DNA of 64,000 bases from Stegostoma tigrinum (taxonomy: Eukaryota). Below, piece after piece: positions 2,690 through 61,877 of the stretch. Numbering within the stretch: the first letter of the stretch is position 1; each line of letters opens with the position of its first letter. Position numbers and translations under genes: made by a program. The stretch covers positions 111,299,558 through 111,363,557 of the forward strand of contig NC_081357.1 in NCBI RefSeq assembly GCF_030684315.1, written 5' to 3'. The notes under the pieces are model-generated. The model saw only the letters and a program-made list of their open reading frames with translations, made no database searches and had not been told where the DNA came from.

Positions 2690-5600
2690 TCTCTACTGAC
2701 ACTGTCACAGGGAAATCAGAACTAGGAATTTGACATTCTGGGATATTTGAACTTTAGGAAACACAGGAGGAAAGGAAAAGGTGGAGGGTAGAACTGTTAA
2801 TGAGAAAATGAAATGAAGACAGTTATGAGAGATGACCAAGGCTTGGATGAGTCCATTTGAGGCAGTAAATAACATCAGAAGGAAGAAGACGCTTGAAGGA
2901 GTAATGTATAAATTGCCAAGCTGTAGCTACACTATAGAAAAGGGTATAAATCAGTAACCATGTAAAAATAGAGGAATAATTATGGGTGACTTTAATCTTC
3001 GTGTTGATTGGGCCAATCAAGTTGGAAAGGGTAGCCACGGCAACAGATTCAGAGACAGTGCATTAGGAACAGTTTCCCAGAGCAATATGTCATGGAGACA
3101 ACTAGGGAACAGGCTATCTTAGATCTGGCCATGGGTAATGAGGCAGATTTAATAAATGACCTCAGTAAAAGATCTCCAAGGAAGTAGTCCTCATAACATG
3201 ACAGGATTTAATATTTAGTTTGAGAGTGGATGATCTAGGGTCGAAAACAATTGAGTTTAACTTAAATAAAGGGAATTGCAATGAAATAAGTTTAGAGTAA
3301 GCTAAAGTGGACTGGGCAGACATATTAGTGGGAAAGACAACAACCAAACAGTAGCAAACACTTAAGGAAGTAATTCATGACTCTCAGCACCAATACACCC
3401 CCATAAGAAGGAAAGATTCTGAGAGGATAAACCAATCATGGCTAACCAGGGAATTTAAGGAGAGTATAAAGTTGAAAGAAAAAGTAGTTAAAGGAGACAA
3501 AAGTCAGTGATAGCCTTGAAACTGGGATAAATTCAAAACCCAAAGGAGAAGTAAAAAGATAATAAAGAGAGAGAAAATAAACTATGAGGCCAAATTAGGC
3601 CATTAACTGGCAAAAAGAGCATCTTTAAATAGATAAAAAGGAAGAGAGAAGTCAAAGTGAACATGAATGAATCTGGAGAGGAAGGAAATGGTGGAGTTGA
3701 ATATTTTGCATCAGTCTTTACAGTAGAAGATACTTCAAACATCCCAATAATACTATTGAATGTGGGGGAAAAAAGCTAAGTATCATCACTTTCACGAAAT
3801 TGGTGCCTCTTTATTCCAAGACTGCCTACTGGTCCTAGACTCTTCCCACAAGGGGAAGCATTTACCATGTCAAGGCCTCTAAGAATCATTTATGTTTCAA
3901 TGAGATCACCTCATTCTTCTAAACTTCAGTGAGCAGAGTCCCAACCTGTTTAGCCTTTCCTCATAAGACAATCCCTACTACTAGTGAAGTAGTATTAAAT
4001 TAACAGGGCTAAAAGCAGGTAAGTCCCCTATCCTTGATAGCTTGCATCCTAGCTACAGAGATAGTAATGTACTGGTTGTGATTTTCCAAAAATCCTGGAA
4101 TTCTGGTCAAGTGCTGGAGGACTGGAAAACTGCCAATGTGACAGCCCTGTTCAAAAAAATGAGAGAGGCAAAAAGCAGGCAACTATAGGCTGATTAACCT
4201 AACGTCTATTGTTGAAAATATGTTAGAATCAATCATTCAGGAAGTAATAACTGCACATTTATAGAATCATGATCCAATCAAGCAGAGCCAACGTGGCTTC
4301 ATGAAAAGGTAGTGTCTGCCTAATTAGAGTTTTGAGAGGATATCTCAACCAGAATGAGAGAGAGGAGCCAGTAGATGTATTTTATTTGGATTTGCAGAAT
4401 GCATTGACAAGGTACGTCACAAAAGTTTGAGTCATAAGAGGTGTTGGAAGTAATACACTGGTGTGCATAGAGAATTTGCTAATGAGCAAGAAACAGAGTA
4501 GGGATAAAGGGTTTCGGCGATAGTAGGAACTGCAGATGCTGGAGAATCTGAGATAACAAGGTGTACAGCTGGATGAACACGGCAGGCCAAGCAGCATCAG
4601 AGGAGCAGGAAAGCTGACTTTTCGGTCCTAGACCTGAAGCATCAGCTTTCCTGCTCCTCTGATGCTGCTTGGCCTGTCATGTTCATCCAACTCTACACCC
4701 TGTTAACTCAGTAGGGATAAAGGCTTCTTTTTTTCAGCTTGGCAACCTGTAACCAGTGGGCTTTCACAGGAATCAGTGCTGGGACCACAACTGTTTACAA
4801 TAACTATTTATGACTTGGGGAAAGAAAGTAAATGTACTATAACTAAATTTGCAGAAGACACTAAAGTAGATAGGAAAAAAAAGTGAGACAAGGGATACAA
4901 ACAGTTTAGAGACATTATTGTGATAGCAACTGAGCAAAAAAACGTTGGAAAATGGAGGATAATATGGAAAAAAATGTGAAGTTGTTCATTTAAGAGAGCA
5001 AAAGAAACCTATTATTTAAATGGAGAAAAAGTGCAACAAAAGAGGCTTTGAGGATACTTGTGCATGAAACACATGAAACCAACAGACAGGTAATCAGGAA
5101 GGCTAATAGAGTATTGGCCCTTGATTCAAGGGGGTTGCAGTGTGAGGGTAGGGAAGTCTTATTACAATTATACAAGGTGTTGGTGAGACCACATCTGGAG
5201 TACTGTGAACAGTGGCCTTATTTAGACATCTTTTCATTGGCATTAGTTCAGCAAAGGCTTACTAGGAACAATCCCTGGTATGGAGGGATTGTCTTATGAG
5301 GAAAGGCTGAACAGTTTGGGACTCTGCTCACTGAAGTTTAGAAGAATGAGGTGATCTTATTGAAACATAAATGATTCTTAAGGGCCTTGACATGGTAAAT
5401 GCTAAAAGGATTCTACCCCTCATGGGAAGAGTCTTAGACCAGAGGGCAGTCTTAGAATAAAGAGGCACCAATTTAAAACCAAGATTTGGAGGGATTTCTT
5501 TTCTCAGAATTGTCTTTGGAATTCTTTGTCACAGAGTCCTGTGTGTATTTAAGGCTGAAATAAATAGATTCCTGAACAGTTGGGGAAATCAAGGGTTACA

Positions 5601-5690
5601 GGGAAAACACAGGAATATGAACTTGAAGAATGTCTGATCAGCCATGATCCTATCGAATGGCAAAGCAGGCTCAAAATGAACAGGAGTAGG
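2690..5690 (+). mobile_element. Old, decayed CR1 LINE with nested insertions
   Basis: Fragments of ORF2 motifs (LDLQNALTR, LLQLYKVLVRPHLEYC) broken by stops and frameshifts. Nested inverted CR1 tail (~3790-3985) and PLE palindrome (~4517-4709). Confidence 0.8.
4517..4709. mobile_element. Palindromic PLE pLTR element nested in CR1
   Basis: Inverted arms homologous to the PLE end at 27933-28020. TSD AGTAGGGATAAAGG at 4497-4510 and 4710-4723. Confidence 0.85.
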
Positions 5691-8141: not shown

Positions 8142-9811
8142 CTGCAAAACAAAAGGAAAACATATTACATTTAGACATTCACTGCTATTAGCGTAGAGTT
8201 TCATAATATACATGCTTTGTAAAATCAGTTTGGGAATTGGATTTAAATAAATGATTAAAGGATAAATTATACATAATTACAAACAACTGACTGAAAACTA
8301 GTAACAATCTTAATATTTAAAATCAAAAAGCCTAGGTTATAGTTAAATGGTAACCTGTGTTTATCTTACAAGGTCAGAGTTAAAAGTGTGAAAACACTAA
8401 ATGATGGACGACCCATCTGTAGGCCACAAGATCAACACTTCTCTTAGTAACAGATTTGTGATATTTAAATGAAATAAACAGAGAATAGATGATAAATATG
8501 AGAGCTTCTTGATAGATCCACCAACTCTGGAGAGAGGACATCCATATCCATTATAGATATATAAATTATTCATTAGGGTCACAGAATCAAAGATAGTCAT
8601 GTTGAGGGTAAAATTAAATAGGTTCCATTTCTTTTTGAGGACATCCAATAGCCAGGAAAATGGGTTCTGGAAATTAATTCAGTTCCTTAGTTTTCATTTA
8701 GCTGCATGTTTCTCCCTGAATTTGATAGTTTGCTGTTAGCTTAGAGCAGGCATACAGGAGCTGTGAAATCAACTCTGGGACCTGGTAGCCATACAGAAGC
8801 TACTGGAGTGGACTGGAGAAAACAGTGAGAGTCTGTACAAAGCAGTGAGTCGAAGGCCTTCAGTAACCAGGGATATTCTGAATTTTTAAAATTTTTCAGC
8901 AAGAACTTGAGTGAAGACCAAGCTTGAACTGAGAAGCTCATATTTGTTAGCAAAGTTGGAGGGTCACTCAGTGAAAGTTAATGAAAAGATTGGCATAAAA
9001 TCTTGAATCTAAAGTGAATTTGTGGATTTTTGTGTGCTTATGTAAGTGAAAGTGAGAAAGTACAAAACAAAGTGTTATTTATTTATTTACCAATGTTGGA
9101 ATTCAGCTAATTCAAAGTCCAGGTGGTATGATATTTCAACTTAGAAGTATAAATACTTCAATTTTTTTTCTGCCATAACAGGCCTTACAGAACTTTATTC
9201 TAGGTTTAACATCGTTCCCTGTACGAATCAGAGCCTCACTTAAAGTCTTTGTACATAAAATCTCAATTTTCAGAATGCAATCTGGGCTTGTAGTGAGGAC
9301 ACTTGTACAATACAACTTCCTTTTGTTTAAAAACCATCGAGTCTTGAGTTGTAGTTTTCAGTTGATCACTGGGTATTCAAAATTGCTCCTGAAATGTTGG
9401 CTGTCTCGGACAATATTGATGCACAATTTTTAAAATCGAACAGTTGTCTACCTAGTCTGATATTTTGTTTAATACAGGGCAATATATTACTGATGCTGAG
9501 TTTGGGGTTCATTTCTAAGGAGGAGTCATACCACATTTGCAATGTTGACTATTTCTTTCTCCACAGATGCTGCTCAGCCTGTTGAGCTTTTCCAGCAATT
9601 TACGGTTTTGGTTCTGATTTCCAGCATCTGCAGTTCTTTCGGTTTTCATTCTTTTCAACAATAACATACGTAACTAACTAGCAGCCATGTGAAAGCATTT
9701 TGATAAGCCTTGCACAAAATTCATAACTGCAATTTCTATTAGTGGCTTATTGGCTGATTTCCAAGAGATTTTTGGACATTCCCAAACAGACACACTTTTA
9801 AGGTAGTACCA

Positions 9812-9971
9812 GAAATAATGGGAACTGCAGACATTAGAGAATCCACGTAACAAAGTGTGGAGCTCGATGAACACAGCAGGCCAAGCAGCATCTTAGAAGC
9901 ACAAAATAGCTTTTGTGCTTCTAAGATGCTGCTTAGCCTGCTGTGTTCATCCAGCTCCACACTTCACTATC
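9812..9971. mobile_element. Palindromic PLE pLTR element lacking the hammerhead core
   Basis: Arms 9853-9906 and 9911-9964 around a tagc centre. Confidence 0.85.
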
Positions 9972-11210: not shown

Positions 11211-11928
11211 GAGAAGGAAAATGTTAACAGAATGAAAAATTGTAGACAACATTTGTGAATCAAGTTATGGCCAGTGGACTTTTTATATCTCTAACCCCAG
11301 AAGAACAGAGAATTTGGCCCTGCATTATTCCTTACAAATGTTTCTAATTTGTTTAAAAAAAAAGACATATAGTGAGCCAAAGGGCACAAAATAAGCCTGG
11401 TCTACAAAGGGTACATTTGGCAGAAATCACCAGATAGTAATCGGACATAGAAACTAACTTTGTCTCCCTGCCCCCTCCTCCTCCATCCCTGAAGAAGAAT
11501 TGGATACTATTTGGAGATGGATGATGCTATTTCCATGCATTTAGTGTCCTTATTCATTAAGATGGAGGTTGCTGGTTGGAGAGGTCAGTGGAAGAGTCTA
11601 TACAAATATGGCTGGCCATGTTTGCCTCATGATAGCCAGTGTAATGCAAAATGTTGTGTCATGGCTGCCTTTCCGGTAACCAATGATACAAAGTTAGGCT
11701 GCATATTTACTTTAGCTCTCAGTCAATATACCAGTACACAAAGATCTTGGCACAGGAGTGCGTGTTCAATTCAGGTCAGAGCCAACCTTCCTAACTAGCA
11801 GACAGGATAATATGACTCTTCTACTGGACTCACAACAGTAACTGTTTGTCTCACCACAGATACTGTCAAAACTGTTGATTATTTCAGCATTTTCGGTGCC
11901 TATCATTCCACAGATTAGAGCCACTTAC

Positions 11929-12308: not shown

Positions 12309-14099
12309 CTGAGAAAAGAAATCAATATTCACAATTGAAAAGAGCAACATAAAGATCATAAATCCACACAATACCAAATTCCTGACCTCTGTTAGATTCA
12401 TTGGAATGGGTTTGGGGGTTACAGAAAAACAGTGGTCACTGGTCACCAGATCTTGGAAAGTGAAATGGGTGACATGAGTCATGACAGATCATTATTTAGT
12501 TTTGCATTCAGAAGAGACGACAAATACTGAATTCTGAGCTTGGTAACCTGGAATTTGAATCAAGGAGGATGATGCTCAAGTTATTTTGTTCTGCCTCCTT
12601 CAGTTTCCCTACAATTTCAAGCCATCAGCCACAAAGCTCGCAAAAGCCGCCCACCAAGTGCGGCAAAAGAACAAAAAATCCTTCGGTGTTCCCTGGGAGC
12701 GAACGGGGTTAAACATTAACTTAGTGTGGTTCAGGAAGTCCACTCTAGAGTGAAGATAGTAAGCTGACAAGTTGCCCGATGTACTGGCCTATTATAAGTG
12801 CGTCATAAACTGAACCATCCAAGCAGAAACCTTTTCCTTGCCTCTGCCAATGTCCTTCAGTACAGTGTACTTATGTGAGGTGACCACCATCAAATATGGA
12901 AAACTAGAATACAAAGTGCACCGTCTTCATATCTCACTTGCTGGCAATCTTGCAAAGATATGAACATTCAACAGGTTATAAGCCCATAGCCAGTTCACTA
13001 TATAGGTCTTTGAGAACATGGCCATTATCCACTTATTAAAAGTGGTCAACAATGATGCTTCAGAACAACCGAGCTGATGACAAGGAGACATGTGAGCTAC
13101 CAAATGTGTAAAGCGTTCAGCATTTCTTCCCTGCATGTTTTGTAAATGTCTCACTACTGAATAGGTATGTGCAGAGGACTCAGATTTGGTCACCTTAGGT
13201 TGTCATACTTACCTTGCTGTCACTCCATGCTGTAAAAATGATTATCACCAAGGTGAGTCAGACCATGTTGATTTTCACCATCAAGTAATAGACTGCTATG
13301 GTTCTAAGTTAAGAAATGTGAAGTTAACAACTCCAGAGTCACATTTCAGATAGATGGCAATATGGCAATGTCCTGAACCATGGCATGTTTACTCCTGGTT
13401 TTGATTGACAAACCAAGCTTTTTACCGACTTGGGAGTCTGTCCATGTGCAAGTCTTGTGAACTGGCTCAGTAGTCCCTTCAGCATAAACTTCAATCTCAG
13501 TCACAAAGTTCCTCAAAACTATGGTCTTTCTCACAAGAAATTTCAGCTTGTTTTCTTTAAGGTTTTAGTTCATACTCCAACAGACAGTATTCCACGACCA
13601 CAGTCTTCAACAAAAAAAAAGGAAAGTCTGTAGAACTTCCTTAATTCTGCTTACAGAGGTCTATATTACATAGATCCAGAAATGAAACAACTTCAACAAC
13701 TGTGTATTTGCCTAGTCTTAACTTCTGGATCTAGCCTCAATCTTTTTCAGCCTGCCGCACTGCATCACCAAGATAAATTATAACCATCAGCTGAGCTAGA
13801 TGGGTCTGTTTTTTTAAACATGGTTTTGACCAGCTCCAGATTACCAAGTAGTTTTGGTTGTCAAACTCTACTTCAGTCTTAGTTTCTTCATGAACTGGAA
13901 GTAGGGGCCATGCCAAAAACATACAAGCTTTCAAACCAAAGATTCCATTACACACAGTTAGTGTCTTACAATGACTCAGATAAATTGTTTTTGTTGCAGA
14001 GCACTTTGTTTTTAAAAAACACAAGCTTTTAGAACTGAATTTCATGATTTGACTGCTTTCATTGAAAAAACCTTACATCAGTGATTATTTTAATAACGT

Positions 14100-14190
14100 A
14101 GACAACAAAGTGCGGAGCTGGATGAATGCAGCAGGCCAAGCAGCAACTCAGGAGCACAAAAGCTGATGTTTCAGGCCTTGACCCTTCATT
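14100..14190 (-). mobile_element. Solo PLE pLTR fragment
   Basis: acaaagtgcggagctggatgaa...gtttcaggccttgacccttcat; the hammerhead core lacks its CUG. Confidence 0.8.
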
Positions 14191-14980: not shown

Positions 14981-15231
14981 CTGAGCAAAAAAAAAACTTT
15001 GATTTTGTTTACAATAAAGTGACGTTTGGGAAAAGTAGTAGCTCCTGAAACAAATTCTTACAGCTAAAACATAGCTGAACAAAGAAAAGTTCATATATTC
15101 AACCGAGGAATTTATATTGCGCAAATGCACTCCATTATTACTTCGCTGCTTTAAACTGATGAAAGACTTCGAGACAGTTATATTTCACCCATCTCTATTA
15201 ATCATGGCAAACTGGAGTAATTTGAAGAGGA

Positions 15232-16030
15232 AACGAAAGCAGAAATTGCTGAGAGAAACTCAGCAGGTCTGACAGCATTTATGGGAAGAGGGCAGGGTTA
15301 ATGTTGTGTCTGGTGGCTCTTCATCTAGCAGTGGGAAGGGGAAGATGTAAGCAGATAGGCGGAGATGGACCCCAGAGAGATACGAAAGGGGTAGTAAACG
15401 AGGAGATTATGGAAAGCATGCCAGGTCAGAAGAAAGACTGAAGAAGGGATAAGAGGAGCTAAGAGTAACAGTGAATGGGTGAGCTGTACTGAATGCAACC
15501 CATATAATGTGCAGAGCTAGGGGTACGTAAGGATGGGTGTCTGAACAGGATTGGGAGTAAGGTGGATTTAAAAAAACTTGGAAAGATGGAATCAGGCTCT
15601 GAAGTTATTGAACTACCGGCTGTAGGGTCCCAAAATGGAAAGTGAGATGTTGTTCTTCAACCTGACGCTGAGGCTCACTGGAACACTGCAGGCCTGTTAC
15701 TGAAATGTTGGCCGGGGAACATGGCGATGTGTTGAAGTGGCAAGCAACTGGAAACTTGGGGTCATTTTTAGGGACAGAATGTAGGTGCTCTGAAAAGTGG
15801 TTACCCAGTTTGCATTTTGTTTCCCCAATGTATAGGAGACCGGCCCCTCCCCAACTTCAGTTTCAGCATAAATACCACTTTTGCCTAGCTACTAACAATT
15901 AGGATGAAAAATCACTAGACTTGAAGTATTAACTTTGCTTTCTTCCCACAGATGCTGCCAGACCTGCAGAGTTTCTCCAGCAATTTCTGTTCTTGTTTCA
16001 AATCTCCAGCATCTGCAGTTCTTTGTTTTT
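15232..16030 (-). mobile_element. Older PLE remnant with GIY-YIG fragment and inverted ends
   Basis: Minus strand ~15775-15840 reads LLYIGETKCKLGNHFSEHLHSV. Inverted pLTRs (agaaattgctg...cagcaggtctg / cagacctgc...cagcaatttct). Confidence 0.75.
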
Positions 16031-17238: not shown

Positions 17239-17436
17239 TCAAGTTCTGTCTGTGTCTCCTGGCTGGGCATACTCTTGGTAGCAGAACAGTTGACATTTTG
17301 GGTCGGGACCGTTCATCCGATGAAGGGTCCTGACCCAAAACGTCGACTCTCCCGCTCCTCTGATGCTGCCTGATCTGTGTTGCTCCAGCTCCACACTGTA
17401 TTGACTGACTCCAGCATCGGCAGTTCTTGCTATCTC
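17239..17436. mobile_element. Decayed palindromic PLE pLTR element
   Basis: gttgacattttgggtcgggaccgttcatc / gatgaagggtcctgacccaaaacgtcgac, plus pLTR tail. Confidence 0.75.
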
Positions 17437-21906: not shown

Positions 21907-22162
21907 AAAATCCAAAAGAACTGCAGATGCTGTAAATCAAAAACAAAAGCAAAGCTGGTGGAAAAGTTCAGCAGTTCTGGCAGCATCTGTGAAATAAAAA
22001 AAAAATCAGAGTTAACGTTTCAGGTCCGGTGAACCGAACAACAGACATAATTCAAGTTCTGAGAAAGGGTCATCGGACCTGAAACGGTAACTCTGATTTT
22101 TTTTTCTCCTTCACAAATGCTGCCAGACCTGCTGAACTTTTCCAGCGACTTTGTTTTAGTTC
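21907..22162. mobile_element. Palindromic PLE pLTR element (older subfamily) nested in decayed CR1
   Basis: Inverted arms; 15-bp TSD CTGAAAAACAAAAGT at 21892-21906 and 22163-22177. Confidence 0.8.
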
Positions 22163-23397: not shown

Positions 23398-23605
23398 GAA
23401 ACAGAATGGAAATTGGAGAAATTCAGCAGGTCTGGCAGCATTTGCGACAAGTAAAGAGTTAACATCTGAAATCCACTGATTCTTCTTCAGTGCTGGACTT
23501 GAAACGCCAACTGATTACTCTCCACAGATGCTGCCATACTTGCTGAGTTGCTCCAGCAATTTCTGTTTTTGTTTCAAATTTCCAGCAGCCACATTTCATT
23601 TTTTA
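23398..23605. mobile_element. Decayed palindromic PLE pLTR element (older subfamily)
   Basis: aaacagaa...cagcaggtctggcagcat / gatgctgccatacttgctg...ttctgttt inverted arms. Confidence 0.7.
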
Positions 23606-24645: not shown

Positions 24646-26300
24646 CTAAGAGGAAATGTGCATAATTTGAGGGGAACATAATGTTCCAATTATTTATATA
24701 TGTTTTCATGAAATTAATTGATTTTTAATTGCAAGAAAAATACACTAGGCTGGTTAATGAAGTGGATTAGAAAGCAATCCGCACACCACTGGGATTTTGA
24801 TTAATATTAATCTGATAATTGATGTTATGATGCCCTTTTTGGTGAAAGTGACTGCAAAAATTACAATCTACAAATTATTAATCTCACTTAAATCTACAAT
24901 GCCCTGAAAGAAGTTACTTCTGCACATCCTACCTGTCAACTTTATAGTCTGTAATTACACATTTTGCCTGGGTAGCTGCTGCACCATAACCATTTGCATG
25001 ACGATGTAATTGTCTCAGCAAGTTGAAATTGTTACAAACAGGAAGTTTAAAAGATCATTGTGTTTTTGGACCAACTTTATGGTTAAATGAAGTGAGCAAG
25101 TGACTTGTTTTGAAGCTTGCCAGACAAACGTACTGAGTGACAATTGTCAAAAGGTTAAAAGCAGGCCTGCAGAGGTGTGATGGAAAGAGACATGGTTTTC
25201 AAACTTGGAGACAACGGTAGCAATATTTGCATTTATTAAAGTCGTTAAACTGCTAGCATCAAATGTCCGGGTCAGTGTTGAGATGGTTGGATTGTAAGTG
25301 GTTAGATTTTAAACTGTCCATTTACCTCTTGAGGTCTAATGAACAGTTCATCAGCATGCTACCTGGACACTAGGCTGATGTGATTCATGTGATTATGAAG
25401 ACCAAAGCTGGGAGGAAGGAACATCTTTTGGAAACCAGTGACGGATTGGTTCATCGACTTCCCAAACTACTGCATTTCCCAGCTAAGCCTGCCAAGATCC
25501 AGGGGAGAAAGAGAGCAGCTGGACATAAAATACCTCTATGGTTCGCTGCACAGCAATGCACGGACCAAATGCACTCCACTACTTCAAGGAGGCAGTTACC
25601 ACTTCACCGGTATCTGGCAGCCACTCAAGTACATAAGTGTCATACTGAGCCTAATGATTTTTTGCACGTGATGTCTATAAGCAAGCAAGTAGCTTGTGAC
25701 TTTGGCAGGATACAATGAGTTATTCATCCAAACTAGTGCAGAGAATTCAAGTTCAAATCCCACTATCACAACAGTATCCACTAAATTGCCAGAGTTTTGT
25801 GAACAATCCAGGCGATTCACCAATTTCTTAGTATTCAAGCTGCCACTATTTTCTGATTTCTTACCTACCTAGTGTTGTGGCCATACAATTTACTCACTTA
25901 TATTCAGGGCAACTAGGAGTGAGTAGACTTCTAACCCAGGAACATTGAGTGGAGAATCACAAAAGACTACAGAGTCTTTTGAATGGACAAAAAATATTGG
26001 CAGGATTGGGGAATTTTGGGTACAAGGATTTAGGTATAGACTAGAATTTTTCTTGGTTGATCAATAGGATTTATATTAAACACAAACTTCAGAGGCATAC
26101 AGATACTCGATAGGAAATATCCACTTTCCTTAGGGGAGAGATGACAGCCACAGGGCATGGGTTTAAAAGAATTAGAAGGATCAACAGACAGGAGTTAAAT
26201 CACTTTGGAAATATTGAGGTTGATAGTCTGAAGCTAACATCGTATTGAGAGAAACTGGGATACACTCAAAGATAAAAAAGTGTAATGAAGTCTGAGATCA

Positions 26301-26427
26301 TCTGAAGAAGGGTCTAGGACCGAAACGTCAGCTTTTGGGCTCCTGAGATGCTGCTTGGCCTGCTGTGTTCATCCAGCTCCACACTTTGCTATCTTGGATT
26401 CTCCAGCATCTGCAGTTCCCATTATCG
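26301..26427 (+). mobile_element. Solo PLE pLTR with hammerhead core
   Basis: tCTGAAGAagggtctaggaccGAAACGTCagc...catctgcagttcccattatc. Confidence 0.85.
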
Positions 26428-27142
26428 TGGATGCACTCAAAAACTGTCATGTCCCATTGGTTTGCAGAAGTGAAGTCCACTGGTGGCCCTCTAATTAGTA
26501 AATAGGCAGGACCAAAATGAATGCCAACTTTTTTCACTTTCAGCAAGAAAAGGTTGAGAATTTGCACAGACCAAATATCATGAATAACAAAACACAAAGA
26601 AACAGAATGACCACAGGGCCAGACAGGAGGCTGCAGCTCATAACTATACATCACATTAGTCACAACTCAGTAAGGAGTGCCATTCTTCCACAGAATCACT
26701 GGAACACAAAGTAGCCAATTCACCCATCATATCTGCACTGGTCAGTTCCCTAGTCCCTATCTCCTGCCTTTCCCATATAGCCCTGCACACCACTTCTAGT
26801 CAAATTAGTTATCCAATGCCCTCTTGAATGCCTCAATTCAATTTGCCTCCTCCACATTTCCATACACTAACCACCCGCGGCGTGAAAAGGTTTATTTTTG
26901 CCCTCACAACTTGCAGTGGTTCCCATTCGTTCTGAGAAGTAGGTGGAACAGTGGGATCTTGCCCCAATCCAAGTGTTCTGCAACCCACAGGACCACCAAC
27001 CACGAGGTAGAAAGTGGGTTAGAGCGAGGCCGAACGGTATCCTTCCGAGCCCTGTATCACAGAATTGTTATAATGCATAAAGAGACCATTAAGCCCATTC
27101 TATCTCTACTAGCTCTCTGGTGCAGTCAATGCACAATCTCCC

Positions 27143-27233
27143 GGATAACAAAGTGTGAGGCTGGATGAACACAGCAGGCCAAGCAGCATCTCAGGAGCAC
27201 AAAAGCCGACGGTTCGGGCCTAGACCCTTCACC
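27143..27233 (-). mobile_element. Solo PLE pLTR with mutated hammerhead core
   Basis: Minus strand ttggtgaagggtctaggcccgaaccgtcggc: core changed to UUGGUGA and GAAC. Confidence 0.82.
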
Positions 27234-27353: not shown

Positions 27354-27573
27354 GAGATAATGGGAACTGCAGATGCTGGAGATTCCAAGATAATAAAATG
27401 TGAGGCTGGATGAACACAGCAGGCCAAGCAGCATCACAGGAGCACAAAAGCTGACGTTTCGGGCCTAGACCCTTCATCAGAGACCTCTCTGATGAAGGGT
27501 CTAGGCCCGAAAGGTCAGCTTTTGTGCTCCTGTGATGCTGCTTGGCCTGCTGTGTTCATCCAGCCTCACATTT
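27354..27573. mobile_element. Young palindromic PLE pLTR element with two opposed hammerhead cores
   Basis: Arms 27395-27483 and 27486-27574 pair at 88/89 positions. 14-bp TSD TGTAATCCCCAACA at 27340-27353 and 27574-27587. Confidence 0.92.
27450..27482 (-). ncRNA. Putative minimal hammerhead ribozyme in RNASEH1 intron 1 (sense strand)
   Basis: ct-CUGAUGA-a-GGGU(cuag)GCCC-GAAA-C-GUC^agc; predicted cut between 27453 and 27452. Confidence 0.65.
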
Positions 27574-36958: not shown

Positions 36959-38086
36959 GTGAGTTTTTTCTTCTAAAACAAAGTCATAGTCATATAAGTG
37001 TGGAAACAGACCCTTCAATCCAACATGTCTGTGCTGAACATGTTTCCTAAACTAAAGTCCCGTTTACTTGCTTTTGGCCTATATCCCTCAAAACCTTACC
37101 TATTCATATACTTGCCCAAATATATATTGTACTTACCTCATCACTTCCTCTGGCAATTTGTTTAATATACATGGCACCTGTCTTTTTTATGTAAAAGGGG
37201 AAAGGAGAATATAATATTCATATACAGTTATTTCAAGACTTCAAAATCCAGATGTGGAAACCTAATCAGTGAATTACATCTTTGCTATCCCTCTCCTTTA
37301 TTACTTTTTATATGGGATTGGTAACTGATTATAATTGTACTAAAACTGCAAAAGGTGAATTAAATTTATTGGTAATGATTCACATCTTTTCCCCTTGCTT
37401 TTGTTCATCTTCCTGGACATGACTGTTCCTTATGGGTTTGTGGTTCTCCAGTTGTTTGCCCTCTAATAGCCAAATGAGGTTGGAAAGTTTAATGCTGACT
37501 GATTAAATGAACACTTGGGTACAGGATTTTGTTGGGGTTGAGGTTTAGACCACTGAGATGCCTGTAAATAAGAGTTAATAGTGCTGCTATTGTAAGTTAC
37601 AGATTGTCGTAGAGGTACTCGTAAGACTGGGTGGATGTTAAAATTGTTATACATTTCAACTACTTTATCATCAATACGTTTTAAGGGGATGCTAAACAAA
37701 ATTCAAGAGAAATGAGCCAGGTCATTAAAATGATGTTAAAAATCAAATTAGAAATAATGCCACATTTGTCCAAGTCAGCAAAATTGGTCTGTATGAAACA
37801 TGCAGTACGATTGAGAGAATTTTTTTTAAGCCAGCAACGATCTTGGATGACTATCTCGAAATAAACAAATATTCTCACATTCTTTGTGGATTTGGTGTTT
37901 GTGTTTAGTACCAACGGTTAAGTTAGTGACTTTGGCGATAGATTTGTCCTGGGATCCAATTTGATTCATTACAATCTTATGTACCCAAGTCCAGTGAAAA
38001 GGTTTGTTTTGCATGCAGTACAAACAGATCAGACCATACAAATGGCATTCAGATAATAGGACCAGAGCAAAGAATACAGTGTGATC

Positions 38087-38216
38087 AGAGATAGTGGGAA
38101 CTGCAGATGCTGGAGAATCCAAGATAATAAAATGTGAAGCTGGATGAACACAGCAGGCCAAGCAGCATCTCGGGAGCACAAAAAGTGACGTTTCGGGCCT
38201 CGACCCTTCTTCAGAG
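38087..38216 (-). mobile_element. Solo PLE pLTR with hammerhead core, antisense to RPS7
   Basis: Minus strand CTGAAGAagggtcgaggcccGAAACGTC. Confidence 0.85.
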
Positions 38217-40439: not shown

Positions 40440-42410
40440 TGGAAGAAGAACACCAATTGTTGACCATGTCTGTAGTCACCTTCAACACTGTAAGGTAGAT
40501 CATCAGGTCTTAGGAGCTTATCAACTTGACTCCCATTAATTTCTCCAGAACAACCTTTGTACTAATACGGACTTCTTTGAAGTCCTCATTCTACTTGGTG
40601 AGTTAATCTTATTTTTCAGATTTTTTTTTTTGTATCTTCCTCAGTCATCTTCCTAATCATCTAGCTCTTGTTTCTCTGTTCCCTATTTTAATTTCTCTTA
40701 ATTCTCCTTCCAATTAGCCCACATTTGTCTTAGCTAAGCATTCTCTTTATACATACCCCTTTTATAGTCCATTTTGTTTTGTTGCTAGATTGAACTTGTA
40801 TTCTATGCATCCTTTCCTTTTCCGTTTCTTGGTTCCCTTAGCTGTTATCTGTTAACTTTGCAATCATCAGATTTATTGCTGTTTCCTGCCATTTTAAAGT
40901 TTGCCCATTTCCTATGTACAGTCAATCTTTCTAATGTACTTTCCTGATCTAGTTTAGCGAAGTTGTGCCTCATTCTTTAATCATTTCCCTTGGTCAGACT
41001 TAACACCCTTGCTGCAGAATAAACTAACTCCCTTTCAAATGTAATGTAATGTAAAATTTTATCACATTGTGGTCATTCATCCCTAAAGGTTATTTTAGAA
41101 CAAATTATTAATTTGCAGTTTTCATTACATAATACTAGATCTAAAATAGCCTGACCCCTAGCTTTTGAAGTTGCTGCTCTGGAAAACCATTCCTAAGGTA
41201 CTCCAGAATCTTGTTGTCACAAGTCTAGTGCACTTCTGTATCCAGTCAATATACAGATTAAAGTCACCCATGATAACTGGAATAAGTGCTTCATGCTTTG
41301 CTCCTCCTAATTTTGTTTCACTGCTCATATTACCACTACAGTGTGGCTGTTAATTAACAATTTATGCTGCCTCTTAGTGTTTTAATTCCATCTGAACAGA
41401 TTCTGCAAGTTCTTCTTTCTGATCTGAGGTCCTTCCTTATGAATATACTGATCCCATGTAGTACTATCAGTACAATTCCTTTTCCTTTCTTCAAAGGGTC
41501 ATACTGCACTCGGTGTTGCCTGCTTCTCTTTCCACAAATGCTACTGAATTTTTCCAATACTTTCTATTGTTTGTTCAGCTTTCCAGCCTCAAGTATTTTG
41601 CTTGTCGTTTTCTTCCCCACTTGTTCTCTTCTAAATGCAGAATATTAATGAATATTCTGTTCCCATTTGTGGTGAACATGTAGCCATGTTTCTATAAAGG
41701 TAACTGTATTGTAACCATCTACCTGTACTTATACCGTTACACCATCTTCCTTGTTGCAAATGTTGCGTGCGTTCAGGTGGAGTGCTGTTATTTTTATCTT
41801 GTTGCTAGCATTTGGCTTTCGTAGCATACTTGAAACTTGCTTTGACTCCCTTACAGCTTTTCTTCAACTTTACTCCCTTCCAATTTGGGTTACCCCTCCG
41901 GTTCCTGGCCCTTGACAAGCTAATTTAAACCAACCCTAGTAGTAAATCTCCCTGCAAAAATATCAGTCCCAGTCCTCTTAAAATGTAACTCGCCCAGTTT
42001 GTCCATGTCCCTATGTCTTAAATGTGGTGCTTGCCCTCCCTTCTACACCAATTCTCCAGTCCCAGTCAGTTCTCCACTGTTGTACTAACTAGCGTGTGAC
42101 ATTGGGAATAATCCTGCATTTACTGCTCCTTAAGTTGTGCTTTGTAATTTCCTCCCTAACTGCCTGAACTCTGCTGTCATAACTCGTTCCTGATCCTAAC
42201 TATGCCCTTGTCAATCTGGGCCATGACTTCTGGGATTTCCTACTCCCTGAGAAGGACATTCTACTGCCACTCAACATCATCCATGACCTTTGAACCTAGA
42301 GTCGGATTTTTATACTGTAGAAGTGTGTGTTTGAGCCCTGACTACAAAACACCCTTCTATCCAATCCTTTACTCCCATATGCTGAAACAGCTTAGACAGC
42401 CCTGACACTG
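40440..42410 (-). mobile_element. Old decayed CR1-like LINE (5' part / endonuclease region)
   Basis: Minus-strand remnants such as a DK..xPD-like motif at ~40500-40525 and IMGDFNL at 41255-41275; many stops. Confidence 0.6.
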
Positions 42411-44570: not shown

Positions 44571-45181
44571 TGTGTGTTTTGCCCCCACCCCACTCTATGT
44601 TCCTATGTCTTCTATCTACATAAAACAGTAACTACAGCCATTGCTCAAGTTTTGAAACCCAAAGCTTAAGCTGTGTAACCCTTGACACTTACCACAGATG
44701 TTTGTCTGGCACAAGTGGTACAACCATGATTTCACACACCCCAGGATGCACACTCCAGTTGTCCTTGCTGGCTTGCCATTCTGTAGCTGTGCAAATTATT
44801 TGTCACTCTTGTAATAAACTTGTTATGAAAGCTTATTTTTAAACTTCATTTTACCTGACTTATTCCTTCATCTTTTGATTGGGGATAGTCAGCTGTTGGC
44901 TTTCCACAATGCACAGTCTCCAGAAAAGTGTTCATACATTTAATTTCATTACTATGATGCAAGGTTTGTGATTTGTAAATATTGTAATATTATTTGTTTG
45001 TCTTTGAATTCTCAAACTTTGATCTAGTGGTATAAATTTTCTGTATCTGAATGTGTTTAATTGTAAACTTGTACATGTTTCTTTTGCTTTGTTGACTTCT
45101 ATCAAGACTGTTTGTTTGGAAATTTCCTGGTTTTTCTTTAGATTGAGAGAGTTTATAAGCAACTAGTGTAAAGAGTGTCTC

Positions 45182-45405
45182 CGAGATGATAGGAACCTGA
45201 GAATCTGAGATAACAGGGTGTAGAGCTGGATGAACACAGCAGGCCAAGCAGCATCGGAGGAGCAGGAAAGCTGACGTTTTGGGCCTAGCCCCTCCTTCAG
45301 AAATGAAGAAGATCTTTCTGAAGGGTCTAGGCCCAAAAAGTCAGCTTTCCTGCTCCTCTGCTGCTTGGCCTGCTGTGTTCATCCAGCTCTACACCTTGTT
45401 ATCTC
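45182..45405. mobile_element. Palindromic PLE pLTR element
   Basis: Inverted arms; TSD CTA(G/A)TGTAAAGAGT at 45163-45176 and 45405-45418. Both hammerhead cores mutated. Confidence 0.85.
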
Positions 45406-45998: not shown

Positions 45999-46613
45999 TA
46001 ATGCAGATACACCATCTTAAGGTGCATTTGTATAATTCCTTATTTCCATTATTTATTAGGAATATTCTCAAGTTTTGACTTAATTTCCGGTGATCCCCTA
46101 ATTAATATTTAGTGCATGCAATTCTGCTTTTATTACTGTTGAACCTATGCTTATTGAAACTTAATGTTTAATTTGCAAATTTTAAATATAGATAAGCAAG
46201 GGTTGGATTCTCTGAACAGTTGTGTGCTATGTGTTTTCTGGAGTGTTGAGTACAATGATGGAATGGCCTTTTCCCACTATTGGGTATTTTGTGCCAGCTG
46301 TTGGATGCAATCCTGAATGCCCCTGAAACTAATCCTCTAAAAAGGAGGTGAATGATGTAAACTCCTCAGGTTTTTATAGTTAGTATGTACTGTACAATTT
46401 GAGAGATACCTGTTGCATGTCATTGAATGGTAAATGGTTCATAAATTTTAATAAATAAAACAAAGAGGATGTTGGAAATCTGAAAAGAAAACAAATAGCT
46501 GGAGAAACTCGAGATCTGGCAGCATCTGTGGACAGCAAGCTGTCGATGTTTTGAGTTGACTGATTCTTTAGAACTTCTGAAGAAGCATCACGAGTTGAAA
46601 TGTTAACTTTTTA

Positions 46614-51393: not shown

Positions 51394-54214
51394 GTATATT
51401 TGATCTGCCCCCTTACCACTTGATTTAGTATTGCATTTCATCTTCAAACAGTGCAGTGAAGCATTCAAAGGTGCACCATAGCAGCCAACTTTTTTAAAAA
51501 AAAAATTGATTATGAAAAGCAGTGTACAAATTCATATAATATGGCAGCCAATTTACACAAGGCAAACTTCCATAAATCAAGAATTGGTAACAATGAGGTG
51601 CTGTTTTTGAGATCGTGTTCTAACAATTACACAAATCCTACAATTACAATGGACGAACGTAGAACACTGAACAATACACCTGAGGAACAGGCCTTTTAGC
51701 CCACTATGTTCATGGTGCTCCTGATGCCATTCTAAGATAATCCCACCTGTCTGCTCATGGTCCATATCCCTCAAAACACCACCTTGTTATCATGTCTGCT
51801 TAAATGTTGCTATTGTCTCTGCTTTGCCACCTACCCTGGCTGCATGCTCCAGGCACCTACCACCTGTTTTTTAAAAAAATAACTTGCTTTCCATATCTCC
51901 TTTCCCTCCTTCACTTTGAGTTGCATGCCTCCGCTGTATTTGACGCTTACACCATAGGAAAAAGACCACAAATGTTGCCACGTAAAGGGACTGACAGTGA
52001 CTCAGCATCATGTCTCATCTAAAAGACCAAAAAGTGAAGATATTGCAGTACTTCAGTCCCACACTAGTGGGTGAACGTTTTCATGCACTAGCCCTAGACT
52101 GGAACATCAACTCTTAAATTTATGATGCAGAAACAAGAGTGGTACCAATTGAACCATGGCTGACACCAAGTCTGTCTGCTGTGATCCCACAACAAAAAGT
52201 ACAAGCACAGCAATGTCAAGAGAATGCTAACACCTTCAAACTTTCACCAAGTAACAAATAACACACCTAACACAGTTGTGCGAGATGAATCAAGGGCTGT
52301 AATAGCTCAAATCAAAGATCTACTGCTACCATCTCATTACTATTGAGAATAGCTACCAATTTAACTCACTTTACTGCTCTATACATCCAACAGAGCATTT
52401 AATGAATAATTCCTGAACATGGATTATTTTTAAAATGTGTTATTTGTTTTTCTCAGAACTGAGTTACCATAAAATCTTTTGGAGATCTATTTTCAACTAT
52501 TTAGCATTTTTAAAGTCAATTTTCCGATTGCTTTTGATTCATCTATTCAAACATATTATGACATGCCTCCTGGAAAGTGAGGATTGTATGTCTGCCCCAT
52601 GGCCCAGAGGTAGAGGAAAATATTTTAATCAGCATGTTCAGGCATGTTATGACACACCTTTGTGGCCAGTGGGATTTGAACAGGACTTTTGGTCCAAAGG
52701 TGGTAGGACAGTATCATTGTGCCACAAGACAGCAAAAGTCTCTTAACACTCTCAGTTTATGCTATATTAAGCCTTGATTTTATTGAGCATTTCAAGCAAT
52801 TTCATAGGTATATTTCCAATTGATTACTCCCGTAGATAGACATGGTATCCAGGGATACTAGAGGATATTGATGCAAGTGCATTCAAAATTGAAGTTTTGA
52901 AAGGCATATGTTTTTGCCTAGACAGACAAACCAGAGGCCAGAAGAGCACAGCAGGACAGGCAGCATCTGGAGGTAAGAAGCAGTCAACGTTTTGGGTTAC
53001 CAGTCCTGAAGAAGGGTAATACCAGAAACGTTGACTGTTCCTTTCCTCCAGTTGCTGCCTGGCCTGCTGTTTGTCTACCTTGCATCCAGCATCTGCAGTT
53101 TTATAAATCTATAAATATGTAATTGCTTGTTTAATTTTTCTTTTGCCTATTTGAGGGGATTACAAGTCCAATTTGCCAGTGGCTTTTATTCTGGCAATCC
53201 ACAACAGGAGGTCAACAACAAATTAATGTTTGCCATTTATTATAGGAGTGTGATGGAATATTCCCCAGTTGCCTGGATGAGTGTGAATCCCACAACACTC
53301 GAAGTTTGGCATGATCCAGGACATGGCAGACCACTTGACTTTTTAAGAAAGTTCATTCATGTGAGGCGAGCCTCTTTGGATGGCTCAACATTTGATGCCT
53401 ATCCCTAATTGCTCAGTGGGCTGTAAAGAGTCAACCACATTGTTGTTGGTCTGGAGTTCCAGTCCAGATGTGGATGGTAGATTTCCTTCCCTAGAGGACA
53501 TTAGTGAACTAAGTGGGCATGTTTGTTAAACAACAATTGACTGTGGTTAGATATTCACCACTGGGCTTTATTCCAGACGTTACTGACTCTTTTTACTGCA
53601 GTGTCTTAAGTTTTTTGGCCTTTTAGATGAAAACATGATGCTGAAACTGTCAGTCACAGGGTGGGAATATCAAATACTAGGGGGCATTGATTTAAGGTGA
53701 GGGGGGTGGAAAGAGATATGCAAGGCAAGTTTGTTTTGTACACAGATGGTGGTAGTTACCTGCCAGGGGAGGTGATAAATCTGAGACAATGGCCAAGTTA
53801 AAGAAGCATTTAGACAGATACATTAGCAGGCAGGGAATACAGGGATATGGATCATGTGCAGACAGATGGGACTAGTTTAGAGTGGTATCTTGAGCAGCAT
53901 GGATGTGGTGGGTTGAAGGGCCTGTTCCCGAGCTGTATTGTTCTGAGTTCTATGTTCATCCATTGTGTTCTAACCAATAGCTGTCCTTCAGTCAGTCTCA
54001 AAAACAGCTCATCTCAATACCAAATTTTGATTTATGGAAGATTGCTTTGTGTAAATTGGTTGCCATATTTTAGATGTTTTATGATTATGAAAGGCACTAT
54101 ACAAATTCAGTTTTTTAAAAAAAATGTTGGAAGACTGCTTTGAAAGCGTCACTGCACTGTTTGGAGAGGGAATGCAATGCTAAATCAAGTGGTAAGAGGT
54201 CAGATCAAATGTAC
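51394..54214. repeat. Diverged inverted duplication; arms ~51394-52049 and ~53594-54214
   Basis: For example 51395 gtatatttgatctgcccccttaccacttgatttag is the reverse complement of 54181-54213 taaatcaagtggtaagaggtcagatcaaatgta. Both arms contain the same nested CR1 tail and DeuSINE-like remnant. Confidence 0.8.
52921..53105. mobile_element. Decayed palindromic PLE pLTR element
   Basis: cagtcaacgttttgggttacc / ctgaagaagggtaataccagaaacgttgactg arms. Confidence 0.75.
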
Positions 54215-56984: not shown

Positions 56985-57575
56985 ATATTCATGAGTGAGG
57001 GTGCCATTGGCTAGGCCAGCATTTATTACCAAATCCTAATTTCCCAAAGGGTAGTTAAGAATCAACTGCATTGCTGTGGGTCTGGAGTCACATGTAGGTC
57101 AGACCTAGTGAGGATGGCAGTTTCTTTTCCTAAAAGACGTTAGTGAACCAGATGAGCTTCTCTGACAATCAACAGTGGATTCATGGTCATCGTTAGACTC
57201 TTAATTGCAGATTTTTATTGAATTCAAATTCCACCATCTGCTGGTAGAGATAGTAAGAACTGTTGATGCTGGAGTCAGAGATAACACAGTGTGGAGCTGG
57301 AGGAGCACAGCAGGCCAGGCTGCAATAGAGGAGCAGAAAAGCTGACGTTTCGGGTTGCGACCCTTCTTCAGAAACGGCCATTTCTGAAGAACGGTCCCGA
57401 CCCGAAATGTCAGCTTTCCTGGTCCTCTAATGCTGCGTAGCCTGCTGTGTCCTCCAGCTCCACACTGTGTTTCCACCATCTGCTGTGGTGGGATTTGAAA
57501 ACCGGTTGCCAGAACATTACCTGGGTCTCTAGGTTAACAGTCCAGTGAAAATACCACTAAGCAATTGCCTGCCCT
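56985..57575 (-). mobile_element. tRNA-headed SINE (second family) split by a PLE palindrome
   Basis: SINE sequence is continuous across the insertion once the TSD is removed. Confidence 0.78.
57244..57470. mobile_element. Palindromic PLE pLTR element with opposed hammerhead cores
   Basis: 15-bp TSD TTCCACCATCTGCTG at 57229-57243 and 57471-57485. Minus core CTGAAGAagggtcgcaacccGAAACGTC; plus core CTGAAGAacggtcccgacccGAAATGTC. Confidence 0.88.
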
Positions 57576-59302: not shown

Positions 59303-60094
59303 ACTTAATGAGGCTGCTGTCAATGAGGTTGAGTTATATTGCACAAACGATTGACACTGGACTACAATTTACTTTCCTCTTTTTCTTTGCGTTTATTTGT
59401 GAATGTCTTAAAATAAATTCACTTTTAAAATAAACTGCATTTTGTTTTTCAATTTCACTCTCTGCCCTTCCTACTGAATGACATTGACAGTCTTCCGAAA
59501 GGTCACAAATTGTGTTCCTTCACAAATGAGCTCAAAATGAGAACAGTGGCAGGCTATTCAATCATACAGACAACAGAAGCAAGTGTGGTCATGTCTCGGT
59601 GTCATTTTTCCTTTTGTTATAGCGGTGACTGTACAAGACTATTGGCTATGAAAGACCGTGGGAGATCCTGAAGCCATCATGCATGATATAAAAAATGCAT
59701 TGGTTCATGCCTCAAATCTACTTTGTATTATTTATGAGAACATGAACTGAAGCAGGGTTAGGCTTTCTGTGCGTTGTCCTCACTTTCCTGCTCTGTCATT
59801 TTATGCCTCTGATCCCTTATTGTGAAAAAAATCAAAATGATTTCAGACTTGAATACGCTCTGTGACTGAGAACTTTGAGGTCGAGATTTCCAAAGATTCA
59901 AAGCAATGGGATGGTGGCAGGACAGGACCAGTTCCCGATTTACTCAGTGCCTGCCTCAAGGTGCTGAAAGGTGTTGAGGAGTCAAGCTCTGTCGCAACCA
60001 ATAAACAGTATTGGAAAAATTGGGGAAATAAATAGTGACATCTTTAAAAATGTTCGTAATACGGACGAGGAGGTGTTGAATGACTGAAAACATA

Positions 60095-61877
60095 ATGTTG
60101 GATAAATCACCAGGACCTGATCAGGTGTACCCGAGAACTCTATGGGAAGCTAGGGAAGTGATGGTTGGGCCCCTTTCAATATTTGAATCTCAATATTTGT
60201 ATCATCGATAGCCGCAGGTGAGGCGCTGGAAGACTGGAGGTTGGCTCGTGTAGTGCTATTATATAAGAAATGTAGAACTATAGACCTGTCAGCCTGACAT
60301 TGGTGGTAGGCAAGTTGTTGGAGGGAATCCTGAGGGACAGGATTTACACATATTTGGAAAGGCAAGGACTGATTAGGGATAGTCAACATGGCTTTGTGTG
60401 TGCAAAATTGTGTCACACCAACTTAATTGAGCTTTTGAAGAAGTAGTGAAGTGGATTATGAGGATAGAGCGATGGTCATGATCTATATGCATATCTGTAA
60501 AATGCTAGACTGGTTAGTGAGGTTAGATCACATGGAATACAGGGAAAACTAGCCATCTGGATATAGAATTGGCCGGAAAGTAGAAGACAGAGCGTGATGG
60601 TGGAGAGTTGCTTTTCAGGCTTGAGGCCTGTGGCCAGCAGTGTGGTGTTGGATCCACTGCTTTTTGTCATTTATACAAATGATTTGGATGTGATCATTGG
60701 AAGTATGGTGATTAAGTTTGCACATGACCGCAAAATTGGAGGTGTAGTGGACTTCGAAGAAGGTTATGTCAGAGTACAATGGGATCTTGATCAGATGGGC
60801 CAATGGATTGAGTGGTGGCAGATGGAATTTAATTTAAATAAATGTGGGGTGCTGCATTTTGGGAAGGTGAATCAGCATAGGCTTATACACTTAATGGTAA
60901 GGTCCTGGGGAGTGTTGCTCAACAAAGAGAGCTTGGAGTGCATGTTCATTGTTCCTTGAAAGTGGAGTCACAGGTAGATAGGATAGTGAAGAAGGCGTTT
61001 GGTAGGCTAGCCCTTACTGGTCAATGCATTGAGTAACAAAGATAGGAGATCATGTTGTGGCTGTATAGGACATTGAGTAGAGAGAGTAGGAACTGCAGAT
61101 GCTGGAGAAACTGAGATAACAAGGTGTAGAGCTGGATGAACACAGCTGGCCAGGCAGCATCAGAGGAGCAGGAAGGCTGATGTTTCGGGCCTTGACCCTT
61201 CTTCTGGTATAATTACAATATTTAAAAGGCATCTGGATGGGTACATGAATTGGAAAGTTTTGGAGGGATCTGGGCCAAATACTGGCACATGGGAGTAGAT
61301 TGATTTTGGGCATTGTGTCAGCATTGGTTAGGCCACTTTTGGAATTCTGGTCACCGTGCTATAGGAAGATGTTGTGAAACTTGAAAGAGTTCAGAAAAGA
61401 TTTACAAGGATGTTGCCAGGGTTGGAGGATTTGAGCTATAGGGAGAGGCTGAATAGAATGGGGCTATTTTCCCTGGAGTGTCGGAGGCTGTGGAGTGAGC
61501 TTATTGAGGTTCATAAAATCATGAGGGGCATGGGTAGGGTGAATAGACAAAGTCTTTTCCCTGGGGTGGGGGAGTCCAAAACTAGAGGGCATGGGTTTAA
61601 TGTGAGACGGGAAAGATTTAAAAGGGACCTAAGGGGCAATGTTTTCAAGCAGAAGTTGGTGCATGTATGGAATGAGCTGCCAGTGGAAGTGGCGGCTGGT
61701 ACAATTACAACATTTAAAAGGCGTTTGGATGGGTACATGAATAGGAAAGTTTTGGAGGGCTATGGGCCAAATGCTGGCACATGGGATTAGGCTGATTTAG
61801 GGCATCTTGTCAGCATGGCCAAGTTGGACTGAAGGGTTTGTTTCTGTGCTGTACATTTCTATTGCTCTACGACTCTC
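60095..61877 (+). mobile_element. Decayed CR1 LINE (RT to tail) with nested PLE pLTR (61081-61205)
   Basis: DKSPGPDQVYPR, PLLFVIYTNDLD, KFAHDRKIGG and LERVQKRFTRMLPGLEDLSYRERL fragments. Confidence 0.88.

Follow-up and report, generated by a model that had tools for sequence, protein, structure and literature searches.

Hammerhead-bearing ends of a probable Neptune-type Penelope-like element in a 64-kb window of the Stegostoma tigrinum genome

A 64,000-nt stretch of the Stegostoma tigrinum genome (contig NC_081357.1, positions 111,299,558 to 111,363,557; hereafter the window) contains a dense population of short arms derived from the pseudo-long terminal repeats (pLTRs) of Penelope-like elements (PLEs) and associated with a minimal hammerhead ribozyme motif. 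We put at about 60% the probability of the model, taken as a whole, in which these arms are insertion products of successive subfamilies of an elasmobranch Neptune-type PLE, generated by run-off reverse transcription and twin priming. The analysis uses the DNA sequence of this one window, and loci are lettered as in Table 1.

A profile search (nhmmer, E<0.01) assigns 35 pLTR arms to 24 loci, and the reversed window yields none; the profile was made from 13 of these arms, which match by construction, and the arm at 47014-47059 is a doubtful member of the 35. A single-copy nhmmer query recovers 27 arms at E<0.01, the query counted, with no match at E<=10 in the reversed window. These counts exceed the "at least 15 copies" of a preliminary description of this DNA and bear out the high density it reported, and the five stems it cited lie where it placed them (23747 on the plus strand, and 28008-27997, 27472-27461, 38206-38195, and 57363-57352 on the minus strand). 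The arms do not, however, form the single family it proposed, as at least four subfamilies of differing age are present, grouped here as young (21 arms scored for 5' ends) and old (14 arms). A strict hammerhead core pattern occurs six times, versus 0.015 times per block shuffle (200 shuffles), and the 20 loci used in the target-duplication test together occupy 4,602 of the 64,000 bases.

Judged from its consensus, the motif is a genuine minimal type I hammerhead by descent with a palindromic ACGU stem III, as the preliminary description held. It fits the published PLE minimal-hammerhead consensus in its conserved core, G10.1-C11.1 pair, palindromic 15.2-16.2 positions, and NUH triplet, and it shares with the minimal hammerheads of Cervera & de la Pena 2014 (PMC4209133) a CUGANGA-N-stem II-GAAA-palindrome-UH core that lacks a stem III loop and lies in the pLTR. 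The core is intact in six of the 35 arms, only two of which have two Watson-Crick pairs in stem I. Stem II is 4-5 bp long, compared with 7-8 bp in Schistosoma (PMC4209133), and is paired at 92.5% across 20 arms; the earlier observation that it stays paired thus holds, but not as covariation, because pairing is kept mainly through GC invariance and U-A/U-G wobble, and double-sided changes occupy 2 of 80 cells, both within one decayed arm.

Stem I, earlier given as 1-2 bp, is indeed short in the young subfamilies, with 2 bp, a mismatch, and 1 bp, an interruption unlike the minimal hammerheads of Cervera & de la Pena 2014; two older subfamilies have 4-5 bp (one arm each, the right arms of loci G and Q), and published helices I of minimal hammerheads span 2 to 6 bp (PMC4209133 supplement). 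Among 10 arms hand-chosen for seemingly retained upstream bases, the two core-proximal pairs of stem I are kept in all 10 with double-sided changes between subfamilies (U-A/C-G and U-A/C-G/U-G), the third pair is kept in two, and the fourth in eight; the pairing score is equalled in 7 of 500 shuffles, and relatedness of the arms inflates such scores. The hammerhead-model search suggested in the preliminary description returned nothing, with no hammerhead match in Rfam 15 at E<=10 for either the whole window or 27900-28100. Together with the near absence of stem II covariation, this is what a chance hammerhead lookalike amplified with the repeat would give, but such an origin is scarcely credible for a motif that fits the PLE minimal-hammerhead consensus, lies in sense orientation downstream of the endonuclease, and keeps the core-proximal pairs of stem I through double-sided changes.

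Folding predictions separate the two age groups. The predicted probability of stem I is 0.6-0.99 in both old arms folded versus ~0 in all eight young monomers, and in several young arms the core is predicted to pair with the cleavage-site strand instead. In the five arms tried, the active dimer fold is less stable than the best cofold by 14 to 35 kcal/mol, and the gap is smallest in old arms. These predictions make the ribozyme of the young subfamilies look weaker than that of the old ones.

The origin of the arms in PLE pLTRs, as first described, is corroborated by a protein remnant in locus M and by the published PLE architecture of an inverted pLTR, an optional 30-40-bp tail, and a target duplication (Arkhipova 2013; Craig 2021; Schostak 2008; Goubert 2022). 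On the minus strand at 28305-29422, locus M codes for the C-terminal part of a PLE protein, with a reverse transcriptase (RT) thumb, a Zn-finger linker, and a GIY-YIG endonuclease with CCHH. The RT/GIY-YIG sequence that had been credited with mobilizing the family is therefore real, but its open reading frame (ORF) is 5'-truncated and broken up by stops and frameshifts; a copy in this state cannot have mobilized anything. Pfam GIY-YIG matches the remnant at E=0.005, below the curated cut-off; in its 83% identical Rhincodon homolog (P0001) GIY-YIG is above the Pfam cut-off and RVT_1 below it, and the order of RT followed by GIY-YIG, as in endonuclease-bearing (EN+) PLEs, is backed by tblastn collinearity. 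The endonuclease piece has 14 homologs among 244 candidates, headed by gene models of Rhincodon (83%) and Stegostoma (78%), and the Stegostoma gene model runs through the same 3' untranslated region (3'UTR) into the same hammerhead frame.

The closest named proteins are from Rhincodon, Stegostoma, and Chiloscyllium, in keeping with the shark setting proposed earlier. Among the best 120 of 790 matches to the Rhincodon protein, the named ones come from carpet sharks and rays (59-85%), which by itself suggests an elasmobranch host and probably a carpet shark, or from marine invertebrates (~50%); the named non-elasmobranchs in these 120 are coral, snails, and sea urchins, with no bony fish or tetrapod, which may reflect old horizontal transfer or database bias. 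A CX4CX2C linker precedes GIY-YIG in the window translation and is present in 11 of 22 named homologs. Linkers of the form CX2-5CxxC are described for Neptune and Nematis (Craig 2021, PMC8557442), and Li 2026 (bioRxiv 10.64898/2026.07.22.740005) gives Neptune and Poseidon as widespread groups and does not list Nematis, so a Neptune-type parent is the best fit, placed by linker and literature rather than by an RT tree. Neptune elements (Craig 2021; Arkhipova 2013, PMC3846280) likewise combine a C-terminal GIY-YIG with CCHH and a CX2-5CxxC linker with an inverted pLTR, a tail at one end, and a target duplication.

An open frame begins downstream of the ribozyme in two of three arms translated, although none of 23 homologous proteins uses it as a protein start. 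In young arms an ATG ~18 nt past the cut site begins a frame that stays open across the tail (e.g., 38086-38170, minus strand), and in old arms the same ATG follows a splice-acceptor-like pyrimidine tract ending in CAG (e.g., 15930-15955, plus strand); this ATG may mark an ORF start or an intron end.

The arms have the anatomy of insertions. Target duplications of 13-16 bp with at most one mismatch flank 8 of the 20 loci, compared with a best of 12 bp in 200 random 150-bp spans, and two or three further loci have weaker ones; they are longer than the 8-10 bp of Adineta Penelope elements. Target sites are 41% GC, in contrast to the AT-rich targets of Poseidon_Ac, and no microsatellite targeting was seen at the eight targets read. 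With pLTR, inverted pLTR, tail, and target duplication, the architecture is that of EN+ PLEs, and the pieces look like single insertions. Their 3' ends fall at two fixed sites ~34 nt apart, ~95 and ~130 nt downstream of the core, both with a TATCTC-like end. The 5' ends of the 21 young arms were called against the sense arm of M, which is itself one of the 21; 16 lie at -6 to +4 of core position C3, two lie within stem II, and two lie at or just past the cut site. Under uniform truncation, even over 150 nt, the probability of such clustering by chance is negligible. The 5' end is the same in tailed and untailed arms (p=0.65, with two tail labels and one end position set by hand), indicating that it is set by position and not by length. 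Ends defined by ribozyme cleavage were considered and rejected, as no more than 2 of the 21 young arms have such an end.

In all 11 pairs the arms are head-to-head. Scored by eye, the tail is on exactly one arm in nine of them, M lacks a tail, and F is ambiguous. The junctions of A, C, and R lie on short palindromes. The arms of L differ at 1 of 85 aligned bases, and in five of six pairs compared at least one of the two arms has its partner as its closest sequence. The exception is M, in which the partner ranks 14 of 19 with 10/53 mismatches and the two arms carry diagnostic bases of different subfamilies. Because one 15-bp duplication brackets all of M, it looks like a single event using more than one RNA, and a mosaic at its junction is consistent with template jumps.

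In the mechanism that we propose, the PLE protein would nick the two target strands ~14-16 nt apart, as the target duplications suggest, and reverse transcription would start inside the element RNA at either of two sites ~34 nt apart. The end positions are observed, and priming at them is suggested by analogy with Poseidon_Ac of Anolis, for which in vitro work (Frangieh 2024, PMC11167929) describes cutting and extension of both target strands, synthesis from two internal sites that define the tail, a product length fixed by the template 5' end, and a ribozyme cleavage that is dispensable and protein-assisted. Most cDNAs would extend through the uncut ribozyme and end a few bases 5' of C3, and priming at either site on uncut RNA would yield the 95- and 130-nt stubs. 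Clustering of the stops is an observation; that the stop zone is the template RNA's own 5' end, from a start site internal to the pLTR, has slightly less than an even chance in our estimate. Where both nicks are primed, two short cDNAs would be joined to each other by their 5' ends, in many cases at a short palindrome, to produce a head-to-head pair of which one arm is tailed. Priming within the 3' pLTR would give the rarer long copies. The system would thus resemble Poseidon_Ac in its two tail-defining start sites downstream of the hammerhead, its uncut templates, and its probable use of both strands; Poseidon_Ac belongs to another clade without the Zn linker, however, and its start sites have an AC-rich stem-loop whereas those here share the TATCTC-like end.

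The sharp 5' boundary, and the excess of short arms over body-bearing ones (2 of 35 carry ORF sequence, those of loci M and E, the latter old), could also arise if a separate, SINE-like (short interspersed nuclear element) non-autonomous pLTR RNA of ~100-135 nt, starting just before the ribozyme, were amplified from its own masters by PLE protein acting in trans. PLE derivatives of such a type are published (Craig 2021, PMC8557442; Li 2026), and the inverted arm of M, being from another subfamily, implies that trans-templating happens. We nevertheless consider this origin unlikely, since the boundary is common to several subfamilies and is present also in the inverted arms of M and E, since ragged ends (-6 to +4) and variable junctions show the head-to-head units not to be copies of one master, and since short-only status is demonstrated for no subfamily in the window. 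The separate non-autonomous family of the preliminary description is not supported by this one window; its stubs have ordinary PLE architecture, and the same short arm forms the inverted end of the body-bearing insertions M and E.

We give little credence to a structural stop, in which the hammerhead hairpin, a bound protein, or cDNA snap-back ends synthesis and the pairs form either through self-priming of a folded-back strand or when longer palindromes later lose their middle. The predicted fold closes at C3 in young arms or at stem I in old ones, matching the end positions, and the junctions of A, C, and R on short palindromes resemble those read as self-priming by Arkhipova 2013 (PMC3846280), who proposes self-priming on an antisense template. 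The cDNA snap-back hairpins are nevertheless weak (-1.2 to -6.7 kcal/mol), and the Poseidon RT crosses its hammerhead to the template end in vitro (Frangieh 2024, PMC11167929). Fold-back further predicts identical arms with no fixed second-arm end, yet the arms of M belong to different subfamilies and the second arms terminate at site 2.

Once inserted, the copies decay neutrally. In a test that drops three divergent arms (R_L, R_R, and F_R) and trims the flank to +32 to +81, private changes number 3/123 in the core versus 13/738 in the flank (p=0.49; 2.8 expected, 3 seen), and all changes give p=0.61. The excess core conservation that had been named beforehand as a test of the family is thus not seen once subfamily differences and non-homologous ends are removed. 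Nor is there support for dimer cleavage at these loci, because in each of the 11 head-to-head pairs the two motifs are on different strands, and the window has no head-to-tail array, the element being absent from all six of its tandem-repeat rows. In transcripts through pairs L and R, the two that were folded, the predicted probability of stem II is 0 and the ribozyme is buried. The inserted copies would therefore be inert, with most cores truncated or altered by mutation, stem I weak or absent, and the arms of pairs folding together. Any ribozyme function would be exercised by a protein-assisted dimer in tandem source elements elsewhere and would probably be weaker in young than in old subfamilies.

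Non-LTR retrozymes (PMC7229834; Li 2026) are likewise short, non-coding, and derived from PLE pLTRs with a type I hammerhead, but they are head-to-tail repeats with a ribozyme in each unit, whereas the copies here are solo arms or head-to-head pairs with ends that cleavage does not define; lacking a tandem array, the element does not have the defining feature of this group. That the copies are active, retrozyme-like elements, with self-cleavage defining the unit, spread through circular RNA, or cutting of host pre-mRNA, is very improbable. Six arms do have intact cores, pair C has its junction at the predicted cut site, and non-LTR retrozymes are reported for the one chondrichthyan genome of Li 2026, but the element is in none of the six tandem-repeat rows, in 19 of 21 young arms the sequence continues beyond the cut site into the core, stem I is mostly absent, decay is neutral, and 8 of 9 Xenopus dimers failed to cleave (Li 2026).

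Several points weigh against the run-off and twin-priming model. The data are DNA from a single 64-kb window that holds no full-length or tandem source element, and the biochemically studied element of Frangieh 2024 is a Poseidon, not a Neptune. At 12 of the 20 loci there is no clean target duplication. The 5'-end calls use a single template, the sense arm of M, such that upstream sequence private to other subfamilies could escape detection in five young solo arms that lack a target duplication, and the 14 old arms stand outside the objective scoring, although in the alignment most of them also start close to the core. The ends of pair C, at +28 to +32, are compatible with ribozyme cleavage or with a stall; the two-template argument hangs on M alone; and the near-identical arms of L and P also fit fold-back or gene conversion. 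Nearest-neighbour energies take no account of tertiary contacts or protein. Finally, a cruder conservation test (18 arms, flank to +91) gives excess core conservation (3/151 versus 79/1064, p=0.009); we reject it because it mixes subfamily differences with non-homologous ends, and its signal may reflect constraint on source elements.

Hammerheads in PLE pLTRs, as dispersed single copies and opposite-strand pairs, are already published (PMC4209133), so the ribozyme itself is no surprise. The elements of Cervera & de la Pena 2014 resemble those here in their many dispersed single motifs and opposite-strand pairs, and among them is one that is 5'-truncated and carries a second, inverted motif; sharks and rays are absent from the portions of that text and the one supplement covered (PMC4209133). 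Penelope is among the listed whale-shark repeats and is present in all vertebrates surveyed by Chalopin 2015. No description of the hammerhead or 5'-end clustering of this shark family was found in a literature search that left out Dfam, Repbase, Lunse 2017, and two supplement sets, and supplement file 1 of Cervera 2014 or the supplementary tables of Li 2026 may list the family already. Judged by title and the start of the abstract, none of the papers found to mention both twin priming and Penelope deals with PLE mechanism.

The PLE literature leaves open how head-to-head inversions arise and what the ribozyme does (Frangieh 2024, Craig 2021, Arkhipova 2013). A dense family with clean target duplications, two start sites, one stop zone, and subfamilies makes replication models testable genome-wide by counting. 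Extrapolated to a multi-gigabase shark genome, six intact cores per 64 kb would amount to ~10^5; that shark genomes hold so many, in stubs that record twin priming from two fixed internal sites, sometimes on different RNAs, with run-off from an uncut RNA just before the core, is conceivable but doubtful. If this is true, head-to-head PLE inversions would be explained by twin priming on sense RNA, not by antisense self-priming, and the ribozyme, once with a stem I of 4-5 bp, would have decayed into a fold that inhibits itself as the element continued to spread. The density in the window, if typical, would be far above the 4,000-9,000 per genome reported (PMC4209133).

Table 1. PLE-derived loci and their parts in the window (positions are those of the window)
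Feature	Position	Strand	Remarks
Decayed old arm	11823..11896	+	
Locus A: head-to-head pair joined inside stem II	4511..4709	.	Left-arm tail; 14-bp target duplication 4497-4510 / 4710-4723
Locus B: old-subfamily solo arm	9519..9638	+	Tailed; decayed core
Locus C: head-to-head pair joined at or near predicted cleavage site	9811..9971	.	Core absent
Locus D: solo arm	14097..14189	-	Core cut at +3
Locus E: old head-to-head insertion	15230..16023	.	
Locus E left arm		-	Endonuclease fragment 15617-15841, 3'UTR, and decayed pLTR
Locus E right arm	15903..16023	+	
Locus F: head-to-head pair	17274..17436	.	Internal deletion in left arm
Locus G: old-subfamily pair	21907..22162	.	Right-arm stem I 4 bp; 15-bp target duplication 21892-21906 / 22163-22177
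Locus H: old head-to-head pair	23401..23598	.	
Locus I: solo arm from exactly C3	23739..23828	+	Intact core, stem I absent; 16-bp target duplication 23725-23740 / 23829-23844
Locus J: tailed intact-core arm with ~14-nt inverted stub	26271..26428	+	13-bp target duplication, 1 mismatch
Locus K: solo arm	27139..27233	-	Broken core
Locus L: young head-to-head pair	27354..27573	.	Left-arm tail; 14-bp target duplication 27340-27353 / 27574-27587
Locus M: 5'-truncated PLE, best fit Neptune-type, with sense 3' pLTR and inverted pLTR	27933..29588	-	15-bp target duplication 27918-27932 / 29589-29603
M hammerhead in sense 3' pLTR	27985..28016	-	C3 at 28016; predicted cut 27989/27988; intact core, 2-bp stem I
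M ORF remnant: RT thumb, CX4CX2C linker, GIY-YIG with CCHH	28305..29422	-	Stops and frameshifts
M junction mosaic	29411..29492	-	Piece of 3'UTR (32 nt) plus piece of endonuclease (56 nt), the latter 84% identical to the endonuclease of M itself
M inverted short pLTR arm	29494..29588	+	Other subfamily than sense arm
Locus N: solo arm	32451..32546	+	
N2: old-subfamily solo arm	35080..35195	-	
Locus O: tailed solo arm	38086..38216	-	Intact core
U: decayed old arm	41494..41590	+	
Locus P: head-to-head pair	45177..45404	.	14-bp target duplication, 1 mismatch, 45163-45176 / 45405-45418
Locus V: old pair	46467..46612	.	Right arm E=0.026, outside the 35 arms and 11 pairs
Locus Q: old pair	52917..53101	.	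Right-arm stem I 5 bp
Locus R: head-to-head pair	57244..57470	.	Both arms end at -6; left arm with intact core and tail; 15-bp target duplication 57229-57243 / 57471-57485
Locus S: tailed solo arm	61080..61205	-	Core cut at +2

The head-to-head pairs would form long double-stranded RNA in transcripts, and those at 4583-4676, 9845-9971, and 45238-45373 give sub-threshold microRNA-precursor matches in Rfam; hairpin pairs of this kind in host introns are a trap for shark small-RNA annotation. A host gene resembling RNASEH1 spans 8111-27728 on the minus strand. Its exon 1 has two in-frame ATGs, at 27728 and 27692, and a Pfam RNase H1 N-terminal domain (E=5e-06), and an exon near 14966 matches Pfam RNase_H (E=0.003); sequences near 12277, 10601, and 8111, located with motifs of this family, are presumably further exons. 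At least 11 PLE loci lie in its introns. Insertion M lies ~205 bp upstream of its start codon, at the edge of the gene's CpG island and on the same strand, with its hammerhead core intact, and could alter the promoter or 5'UTR of this gene.

A second host gene, which we take to be RPS7-like from its sequence, runs from 36246 onward on the plus strand, with exons near 36246, 36888, and 39457; its CpG island (~35400-36150) contains, at 35824-36019, a 57-bp x 3.4 tandem repeat with pyrimidine-rich starts. A 550-codon open frame on the minus strand at 979-2631 codes for the reverse transcriptase of a long interspersed nuclear element (LINE; Pfam RVT_1, E=1.4e-34), which we presume to be CR1-like, and decayed LINE pieces are also present at ~34600-35270, 60567-60959, and 61205-61862. 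A tRNA-like stretch at 38290-38345 on the plus strand scores 33 bits, versus an Rfam gathering score of 29, and is probably the head of a tRNA-derived SINE.

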